Shown: positions 30,301-32,000 of the stretch, in pieces
Position numbering within the stretch: the stretch's first letter is position 1
Layout: the number at the start of each line of letters is the position of its first letter
Assembly (NCBI GenBank): GCA_048882505.1
Contig: JBHLRO010000005.1
Coordinates: forward strand, 180,001 to 212,000
DNA length: 32,000 nt
Source: Candidatus Thorarchaeota archaeon
GTDB taxonomy: Archaea > Asgardarchaeota > Heimdallarchaeia > Hodarchaeales > Hodarchaeaceae
Reading direction: 5' to 3'
The notes under the pieces: generated by a model
What the model saw: only the letters and a program-made list of their open reading frames with translations
Told to the model about the DNA's origin: nothing
The model's database searches: none
Made by a program: the position numbers and the translations under genes

Positions 30301-30837
30301 ATGAGCGATGAACCCCTGGAAATAGATGAGATTATTCCTACAATTGAGAGAGTTAAATCTACTCTCATGCTACAAAACGAGAAACTTCTAAATATGAGAA
30401 AGGAACTAGAAGCGAAAGAAACAGAAATTGAGATTAAAGAAAAGGAAATCGCAGCACGGGAAAAGGCGCTTGAGGAAGCTCATTTACGTCGCCAACAGCT
30501 CGAATTTGACTATATGAATCTAGAGAACGAGCTCAAAAAGATCTCCGAACTGTATCAAGAAATGACTGGTAGAGAGGAGGCATCATTAGATGTCAAACAG
30601 TTACTCGGGATCTACATTGCCCTCTTAGAAAAGGTTTTCGCGGGTCAGCCCCATGCGAAGATCCTCTACCTACTTCACGGCGATAAATCAGAAATGACGC
30701 GTGAAGAGCTTACCAAGGCGAGTGGAGTTTCCGCAGCTATAGTACTTCACTCGATCCATGAACTTCATCGGGCGGAGCTTGTAACGTGGGATGAAGAAGC
30801 TGGGCTTGTGCAGTTAACAAATCGTATTTTTGAATAG
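30301..30837 (+). CDS. Coiled-coil protein with C-terminal winged helix-turn-helix
   Basis: E/K-rich heptad region at aa ~15-90. HAKILYLLH...MTREELTKASGVSAAIVLHSIHELHRAELVTWD...VQL is a wHTH pattern. Confidence 0.8.
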   Translation: MSDEPLEIDEIIPTIERVKSTLMLQNEKLLNMRKELEAKETEIEIKEKEIAAREKALEEAHLRRQQLEFDYMNLENELKKISELYQEMTGREEASLDVKQLLGIYIALLEKVFAGQPHAKILYLLHGDKSEMTREELTKASGVSAAIVLHSIHELHRAELVTWDEEAGLVQLTNRIFE

Positions 30838-30948
30838 CTCTTCTGGTCGGAGACCTATTCGGTTATAGAGACTCCCGGTGCTATGTCGATATTATCCCAT
30901 GATTTATCTTGTTCAAACTTCAATATACCTGATATGCTGGCTGGTAAC

Positions 30949-32000
30949 ATGCAGATTAACTTTATAGAGGAGTTTTTGCTTTTCCTGGAGGTAGAGAAGA
31001 ACTATTCGGCAAAAACAATTAAGGAATATTCGTATGATCTGGAATTATTCAAACAATCCTTATCGTCTGAAGGGTTGGACAAGAAGATCGAGAAGGCAAC
31101 TACGACAGATGTTCGCCGTTTCCTCCTTTTTCTAAAACGGGATAAAGATTACGCTCCACGAAGTCTGCATAGGAAAATATGCGCTCTAAAATCGTTTTAT
31201 AAGTACCTAAGAAAAGCAGGTTATATTACTACTAATCCAGTAGAACAGATAGAATCTCCAAAAATACCCAAATCCTTGCCAAAGACGGTTACAGTTGATG
31301 AAGTCTTTCGACTCCTATCGTCTCCAGGAGGAGAACGTGATGCCTCAATCCTGTATTTACTTAGAAACGAAATTAATCTACCCCAAAGTAACATGGGTGC
31401 CAATTTTCAGTTCAATCTTGCGACGGACACAATCCTTATTGAAAATAACAACGGGTATGCCAACAGTTTAATTCCCATTCCTGAGCTGATACTCTCAGTT
31501 TTACAAACTAGGCAAAAGACTGAACCAATGGAAAAAAACAATACAATATCGCTTTTCGAGATGTTAACCAAGCTCTCCAGCCCTATAAATCTCAGAGACA
31601 AGACTATCTTGTACCTGCTTTACGGTACAGGATTACGGGTGTCAGAACTTAGTAATTTGAACACGGAACATATTGATATCCCTAATAGAGTCATCCGTGT
31701 TGAAGGCGGGAAAGGCAACAAAGATCGGATTATTCCGTTACCAGACCTGCTTGTGCCTATTCTTACAGAATACATATCTTCTTACTTCAGTAAATTCAAT
31801 CGTAAGGATTCAGCATTGATATTAAACCAGAGGGGAACTCGCTTAACTCCACGCTCCATTCAACGCATTGTCAAAAAGCATAGGAAGCTAGCTGGATTAA
31901 ACGACAAGAGACTTACTCCTCATACCTTACGGCACGCATTTGCAACTCATCTTCTCTCCAACTCGGTTGACATTCGAGTAATACAAGAATTATTGGGTCA
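30949..32000 (+). CDS. xerA: XerA/XerC-D-like tyrosine recombinase with internal insertion (3' end runs off the window)
   Basis: Manual translation, absent from the track. N-terminal SAM-like domain (FLEVEKNYSAKTIKEYSYDL...ALKSFYKYL), then LYGTGLRVSEL, GGKGNKDR, TPHTLRHAFATHLL and IQELLG(H). Alternative ATG at 30934. Confidence 0.9.
   Translation, partial: MQINFIEEFLLFLEVEKNYSAKTIKEYSYDLELFKQSLSSEGLDKKIEKATTTDVRRFLLFLKRDKDYAPRSLHRKICALKSFYKYLRKAGYITTNPVEQIESPKIPKSLPKTVTVDEVFRLLSSPGGERDASILYLLRNEINLPQSNMGANFQFNLATDTILIENNNGYANSLIPIPELILSVLQTRQKTEPMEKNNTISLFEMLTKLSSPINLRDKTILYLLYGTGLRVSELSNLNTEHIDIPNRVIRVEGGKGNKDRIIPLPDLLVPILTEYISSYFSKFNRKDSALILNQRGTRLTPRSIQRIVKKHRKLAGLNDKRLTPHTLRHAFATHLLSNSVDIRVIQELLG
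31318..31833 (+). repeat. Degenerate intragenic duplication (258-nt offset) within the recombinase
   Basis: SSPGGERDASILYLL...ILIENNNGYANSLIPIPELILSVL versus SSPINLRDKTILYLL...VIRVEGGKGNKDRIIPLPDLLVPIL. The ILYLL-to-IP spacing is 36 versus 37 aa. Confidence 0.8.

Follow-up and report, generated by a model that had tools for sequence, protein, structure and literature searches.

An Asgard archaeal XerA recombinase with the first half of its catalytic domain duplicated and one copy catalytically dead

Introduction

Xer recombinases are textbook two-domain enzymes. At the end of the window analysed here, the whole 32,000-nucleotide stretch of contig JBHLRO010000005.1 (positions 180,001 to 212,000) from an Asgard archaeon, lies a xerA gene in which an earlier note, made from the sequence alone, had seen an additional in-frame stretch ahead of the catalytic residues. 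The locus raises the question of what this stretch is, whether it is real and retained, and what a dead half domain may be doing within the only tyrosine recombinase found in the genome. The gene offers a rare and clean case of a partial domain duplication that has survived in an essential enzyme, the sole Xer gene of an Asgard archaeon, and it bears on how archaeal XerA is controlled without FtsK, with a reach that is limited because few close lineages carry the insertion.

Identification of the gene as an archaeal XerA

The xerA open reading frame occupies window positions 30883-31998 on the forward strand and is open at its 3' end. Its in-window part (30883..32000, +) covers aa 1-372 of the 413 encoded by the full gene on the contig, the stop lying 125 nt past the window end. 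The start is ambiguous, with M1 (30883), M18 (30934) and M23 (30949) all in frame, and the true start is likely M23 at 30949 or M18 at 30934, because the orthologues begin there. In the genome of the closest relative (G016), 21 residues upstream of the called start also align in frame.

The protein follows the XerA plan of one core-binding and one catalytic domain, the half-copy described below being an addition to that plan and not a replacement of any part of it. The N-terminal SAM-like core-binding domain (30964..31218, +; aa 28-112) was recognised by PF02899 (E 5.9e-17) and modelled with a pLDDT of 85-98, and is followed by the interdomain linker ESPKIPKSLPK (31252..31284, +; aa 124-134), which is invariant across the genus in the alignment. 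Pfam placed Phage_integrase (PF00589) at aa 218-372 and gave no domain match on aa 125-215. The remaining, unduplicated part of the catalytic domain within the window (31777..31998, +; aa 299-372) contains H347-x-x-R350 at 31921-31932, and the codons for H373 and Y382 lie just past the window end, with the catalytic tyrosine falling within an LYTH motif near the C-terminus of the full-length contig translation. All six catalytic residues (R252, K277, H347, R350, H373 and Y382) match invariant columns of an 80-sequence alignment.

Among the NCBIfam models, the archaeal XerA family NF040815 (recomb_XerA_Arch) matched at 255.3 bits, above its cut-off of 220, in two stretches split by the insert; P0007, a relative of normal form, scored 271.3 bits on the same model. 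Scores lay under the cut-offs of the bacterial XerC (TIGR02224, 296.7 versus 335.15) and XerD (TIGR02225, 280.3 versus 329.6) equivalogs, of NF011946 (98.1 versus 435 bits) and of the integron integrase model TIGR02249 (integrase_gron, 144.8 versus 265 bits), and identification of the protein as an IntI was rejected on the last of these. The AF2 model of the full-length protein had a mean pLDDT of 81.5 and found its best structural matches in the XerA structures 5hxy and 4a8e, and the close relatives bear the source names of proteins from Heimdallarchaeota or Hodarchaeales MAGs. By its profile and structural matches, the 413-aa gene is an archaeal XerA, a tyrosine recombinase.

A profile search of the 94.5%-complete genome found this to be its sole PF00589 gene, and the genome of the closest relative likewise holds a single PF00589 gene at the threshold used. 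The gene is chromosomal, present in a single copy, set in conserved synteny and outside any mobile element. As the only tyrosine recombinase found in a genome so nearly complete, the enzyme presumably works, and the sole gene and its intact active site together suggest that the protein presumably still acts as the dimer resolvase of the cell.

Extent and layout of the insertion

Alignment against nine relatives of normal form resolved a clean in-frame insertion of 86 aa (258 nt) at aa 149-234 (window 31327-31584, +), located in the catalytic domain, where it separates the first helix from the Arg-I helix. The earlier placement at 31318-31575 (aa 146-231) describes the same insertion, as the boundary slides across the duplicated SSP. 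Because the block is so clean relative to the normal relatives, the layout can be written as two successive units, a1-b1 and a2-b2, followed by an unduplicated C-terminal half.

In the first unit, helix a1 (31285..31326, +; aa 135-148, with the helix itself at 138-145 and a pLDDT of about 86) stays near the orthologous helix of normal XerA in the alignment, and leads into the dead copy b1 (31327..31518, +; aa 149-212), which is made up of helix G, a three-stranded sheet and the first part of the helix that follows. The stretch joining the two copies (31519..31542, +; aa 213-220) has a pLDDT below 50 and is poorly conserved among the three orthologues that carry the insertion, and is probably disordered. 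The second unit consists of its own first helix, a2 (31543..31584, +; aa 221-234), and the active copy b2 (31585..31776, +; aa 235-298), in which R252 is encoded at 31636-31638 and K277 at 31711-31713. Helix a1 is better conserved and better modelled than a2, which has diverged further.

Evidence for duplication and loss of the catalytic residues

BLASTP, shuffling and a unit HMM alike bore out the proposal that the insertion is a tandem copy, now diverged, of the segment after it. When aa 125-215 were compared with aa 216-372 by BLASTP, 75 columns were aligned (aa 135-209 with aa 221-294), of which 31% were identical (E 1e-7). With the first helix left out, Smith-Waterman alignment of b1 (149-212) with b2 (235-298) gave a score of 64, which was reached by 0 of 5000 shuffles (23.6 +/- 4.6), and an HMM of the normal XerA unit produced two matches in the protein, at aa 135-207 and 222-297. 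The b1 segment alone matched XerA of its own genus at the corresponding residues, with E-values down to 6e-8, and scored lower against distant Xer proteins. In a comparison of language-model features, 39 of the 40 hits for aa 135-234 were to Phage_integrase clusters, and the insert alone was not recognised by the Pfam and NCBIfam libraries. An hhalign comparison of the insert alignment with normal XerA returned a probability of 98.5%, a value inflated by 21 directly orthologous residues at its start, for which reason the tests restricted to b1 were preferred. As DNA, the copies share 58% nucleotide identity, about 1.7 SD over codon shuffles, and their similarity is no longer significant, in agreement with the many synonymous differences between them that had been reported from the letters.

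The catalytic Arg and Lys are gone from the first copy, as the earlier note had read, with R252 aligning to N165 and K277 to N190. The loss extends to all six positions of the segment that are invariant in an 80-protein alignment (Y247, G250, R252 as Arg-I, E255, K277 as the catalytic Lys, and R282), each of which is changed in copy 1 in all three carriers, while three of nine near-invariant positions are kept. Copy 1 contains four Lys and Arg residues and has a net charge of -2, compared with eight and a net charge of 0 in copy 2; the conserved blocks of the insert are mainly hydrophobic core positions, and its catalytic and basic residues have been lost. The second copy and the rest of the gene retain R, K, HxxR and H, and the Tyr (Y382) lies past the window, again as first described. 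Judged from these alignments, the first copy duplicates the first half of the catalytic domain but is catalytically dead.

Distribution, origin and retention of the duplicate

Among the best hits from 5.8 billion protein clusters, the long form was found in three proteins only: the XerA described here, P0004 (84% identical, from GenBank MAG GCA_048881705.1) and P0005 (74% identical, from Logan contigs of two runs). The remaining close relatives have the normal form of about 296 aa. The carrier loci have the same neighbouring genes, in conserved synteny. The distribution, which the earlier note had left to alignment with archaeal XerA, is narrow: a search of the 22 species genomes of the genus (own included) showed the insert in two, the normal form in 17, a gene fragment only in one and no match in two.

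The insertion is also present in assemblies of independent origin. In addition to the second genome and the Logan contigs, a 965-nt contig from a separate study covers window positions 30883-31592 with 54 substitutions and no gap (about 92% nucleotide identity), and another public-run contig spans the joint between copy 1 and copy 2. The earlier view that the insertion is not an assembly artefact thus holds, its junctions being supported by independent contigs. No deleted (joined) form was found among the public-run contigs, from which, as contigs, rare variants could escape. The public runs matching the gene included no RNA run. Two further candidates for the gene product were considered and rejected: an intein or intron, as the segment is a paralogous copy and the contigs show no skipped form, and an internal start at M215 for a separate catalytic protein, as this Met is not conserved in the two other orthologues.

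A tree of XerA computed without the insert grouped the three carriers together (SH-aLRT 100) within the normal-length XerA of the genus, and the simplest reading is a single gain in one small clade. The stem of the carrier clade measures 0.29 substitutions per site, versus at most 0.18 in neighbouring clades, and evolution of XerA outside the insert may have sped up at about the time when the duplication arose. In the segment tree (b1, b2 and orthologues), the branch of copy 1 is about 3.4 substitutions per site long, with an unresolved attachment, whereas that of copy 2 is shorter than 0.3 over the same period; this tree has few columns, is rough, and neither proves nor disproves a local origin. 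As judged from sequence divergence, copy 1 evidently underwent a burst of change, relaxed or directional, before constraint was restored.

Among the three orthologues, dN/dS is 0.14-0.42 in unit 1 (aa 135-220) and 0.01-0.09 elsewhere in the gene for the comparisons that allowed an estimate of dS, synonymous sites being near saturation among the three carrier lineages. Within the insert, pS exceeds pN (p between 0.002 and 1e-9) and indels are absent; by these substitution patterns, the insert is under purifying selection. The intact frame is uninformative in this regard, because a stop or frameshift would also destroy the essential downstream catalytic half, and it is amino-acid conservation, not the open frame, that provides the informative sign of retention. 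Purifying selection and conservation in three orthologues bear out the claim that the insertion is old and retained.

Predicted structure of the insert

AF2 predicted the insert, both in the full-length protein and alone, as helix-helix-strand-strand-strand-helix, an order that repeats that of copy 2. Confidence in the insert was low (pLDDT 52-74 in the full-length model and 51.5 alone, from a three-sequence alignment), and a Foldseek search of the stand-alone model, itself weak, against the PDB gave no match at E <=0.001. The expectation that the insert is related in fold to the N-subdomain of the catalytic domain was thus borne out in the order of its elements, but not in model confidence or in a structural match, and the fold and position of the insert therefore stay provisional. 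Copy 2 was placed within the catalytic domain with a pLDDT of 91-96. Prediction of a complex between unit 1 (aa 135-220) and the C-terminal half (aa 299-413) scored 0.08, which carries no weight either way.

Neighbouring genes and search for a dif site

A 178-aa gene (30301..30837, +) precedes xerA and combines an N-terminal coiled coil with a weak ArsR-like winged helix (HTH_5, E 0.015). It was found directly upstream of xerA in 10 of 10 examined loci holding that gene, with or without the insertion, these including the other carrier loci and seven insert-free loci of the genus (55-93% identical). Being present with or without the insertion, the gene is context and not part of it, and its protein may be an operon partner of XerA. 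Just past the window end, a gene for a DCC1-like (DUF393) thiol-disulfide oxidoreductase (L001:2741-3166, -) is oriented convergently to xerA; of the loci examined, only those of the own genome and G016 were found to have it.

The site expected for a XerA is a 28-bp dif (11-6-11) near the replication terminus, and it was sought as 11-6-11 palindromes with an ATAA/TTAT core, with the dif arms of P. abyssi (PMC2958812) as a guide. Two intergenic 11-6-11 palindromes with a TATAA/TTATA core were recovered, both outside the window (G000:C29:29586-29613 and G000:C18:58644-58671). The first is conserved in G016 at 28/28 positions and the second at 26/28, with flanks that are 91-94% identical and thus equally conserved, and both palindromes are missing from other members of the genus. 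They resemble promoter TATA-box regions more than a dif. A relaxed dif-core pattern applied across the genus gave hits no more than the control, and the cognate dif, which the earlier note had hoped to locate, could not be assigned from genome palindromes and genus comparison.

Interpretation of the dead copy

Duplication, loss of the catalytic residues, single origin, retention and selection are established by the sequence comparisons above, and any account of the dead copy has to begin from them. The account preferred here, which is probable though well short of certain, is that a single in-frame duplication gave rise to an active downstream copy and to an upstream copy that persists as a tolerated structural module. 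A 258-bp in-frame tandem duplication would have occurred once inside xerA, in the ancestor of a small clade in one Heimdall-group genus, and would have doubled the first helix, the Arg-I helix, the three-stranded sheet that bears the catalytic Lys and the opening part of the helix after it. Together with the unduplicated C-terminal half, the downstream copy would build the normal active site (R252, K277, H347, R350, H373 and Y382), from which we infer that the enzyme is active and that the protein is still a chromosome-dimer resolvase. The upstream copy would have diverged very fast, to about 31% identity, losing half of its basic residues together with the catalytic and DNA-facing invariants and keeping the hydrophobic core pattern. 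Purifying selection would later have acted on a folded extra lobe of about 86 aa, which is predicted to sit at the hinge between the core-binding and catalytic domains. Such a lobe would be a tolerated module that must fold without disturbing the clamp, and would present at most a protein-contact or regulatory surface, without amounting to an additional DNA-binding or catalytic unit.

The suggestion that the extra copy is a DNA-binding module is disfavoured. Its invariants have been lost, its Lys and Arg content is halved (4 versus 8) and its net charge is -2 versus 0, and as the conserved catalytic and DNA-facing residues are among those lost, DNA binding by the dead copy through the ancestral surface is unlikely. 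No support was found for the related ideas that the module alters site recognition or substitutes for an activator such as FtsK.

A regulatory or protein-contact role is possible. As a counterpoint to mere tolerance, a half domain normally leaves an exposed hydrophobic face, which argues for a partner or for intramolecular docking, and a dN/dS down to 0.14, together with an independent duplication in a XerC-type clade, would fit a real function at least as well as tolerance. It is conceivable, though on balance doubtful, that the dead half domain has been neofunctionalised into a regulatory or protein-binding surface that controls when XerA fires, with candidate contacts in the partner protomer of the synapse, the upstream coiled-coil and winged-helix protein, or a division or segregation factor. 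The insert is under selection and holds the invariant blocks PGGERDASILYL, NFQF, SLIPIPEL and SVLQT in three lineages, a partial duplicate of ~130 aa, likewise lacking Arg-I and the GKG hairpin, became fixed independently at this position in the XerC-type clade, and the long XerA stem of the carrier clade (0.29 versus <=0.18) could reflect co-adaptation. However, the candidate partner encoded upstream adjoins xerA in carriers and non-carriers alike, the insertion is very narrowly distributed (two of the 22 species genomes in the genus), and folding and non-interference alone can explain constraint inside an essential enzyme. A wider form of the same idea, that dead N-subdomain duplicates are recurrent and selected hinge lobes in Xer proteins that serve regulation or partner binding and control XerA here, is likewise tentative, with perhaps one chance in several of being right. 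If true, the hinge lobe would have evolved at least two times (in Heimdall-group XerA and in the XerC-type clade), and would set when or where the sole dimer resolvase of the archaeon acts.

It is improbable that copy 1 acts as an auto-inhibitory decoy, docking on the C-terminal half in place of copy 2 and so giving an inactive fold without Arg-I and Lys that would need switching to the active one. The Arg-I helix and the sheet normally pack against the rest of the domain, and copy 1 does keep their hydrophobic pattern; the a1-b1 and a2-b2 joints are both preserved in native-like form, but 12 of its 15 invariant or near-invariant positions are changed, a proline falls in the second half of the helix, and AF2 puts copy 2 in the catalytic domain (pLDDT 91-96) and models the insert with low confidence.

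Slightly less probable still, and very hard to reconcile with the layout of the gene, is an origin of the insert as a fragment of a foreign, distant integrase inserted in frame and not as a duplicate of the host gene. The long branch of copy 1 (about 3.4 substitutions per site) and its unresolved attachment speak for such a fragment, but the units stand head to tail and in register at an offset of 86-87 aa, b1 scores best against XerA of its own genus and not against distant Xer proteins, the insert and the XerA of the genus have the genus-specific motifs RD..ILYLL and IP.P.L in common, and the joints SSPGGERD and SSPINLRD are both native-like.

An assembly artefact or decaying pseudogene is effectively refuted: the source genome is an 83-contig MAG and tandem repeats are prone to mis-assembly, but at about 58% DNA identity the copies are too different for an assembler to collapse or expand them, independent assemblies carry the insertion with substitutions and no gaps, and the gene has an intact frame, complete catalytic residues and a dN/dS well below 1 as the sole tyrosine recombinase gene.

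Comparison with known and parallel systems

Read as the host of a tolerated module left by one in-frame duplication, the protein can be set beside the archaeal XerA enzymes of Pyrococcus abyssi (PDB 4a8e) and Thermoplasma acidophilum (PDB 5hxy) (Cortez et al. 2010, PMC2958812; Serre et al. 2013, PMC3646895). It is like archaeal XerA in having a core-binding and a catalytic domain, the R-K-HxxR-H-Y set, a score above the NF040815 cut-off and a single chromosomal copy, and differs in its 86 extra residues from a partial tandem duplication. This insertion is absent from the XerA descriptions in PMC2958812 and PMC3646895, from the nine aligned relatives and from the 17 genus genomes of normal form.

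The nearest parallel is a XerC-type clade of metagenomic proteins of 411-418 aa (P0175, P0270, P0271 and P0272), of which P0175 (415 aa) was flagged by the unit HMM. Each carries an in-frame, diverged partial duplicate (~130 aa) of the N-terminal portion of its catalytic domain at the insertion point seen in XerA, and the first copy has a Lys instead of Arg-I and no longer has the GKG hairpin. The insert of P0175 is 63-84% identical to those of its three relatives; the protein passes the XerC equivalog TIGR02224, and its gene (L017:4001-5236) adjoins a topoisomerase I gene on a 4.9-Mb contig. The clade has about 39% identity to the archaeal XerA, its unit is ~130 versus 86 aa long with other breakpoints, and its dead copy stays very basic, unlike that of the archaeal protein. 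Given these differences in breakpoints, length and charge, the XerC-type duplication is a separate event, and it shows that the insertion site tolerates, or perhaps favours, such additions. A literature search, which was not exhaustive, found no published description of either duplicate, in archaeal XerA or in the XerC-type clade.

In the integron integrases, the extra segment lies later in the catalytic domain and is not a duplicate. The likeness to IntI (for example VchIntIA, PDB 2a3v) is confined to the presence of an extra element inside the catalytic domain, although archaeal XerA also goes by the NCBI product name 'integron integrase'. Tandem Xer-Xer fusions (650-750 aa) likewise join duplicated or fused Xer sequence in one polypeptide, but consist of two complete recombinases, each with both domains, and have no dead half domain. 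Among the retrieved proteins, 34 are 520 aa or longer and match the unit two or more times, and many proteins of 600-870 aa in the range P0123-P0204 match the query in four stretches and appear to be complete tandem Xer-Xer fusions.

Outside the recombinases, the JAK pseudokinase JH2, which stands beside JH1, is a whole dead domain with a proven regulatory role. By analogy, the XerA described here would resemble the JH2/JH1 arrangement in carrying a dead duplicate in the same chain as the active copy, with the difference that the duplicate here is a half domain only.
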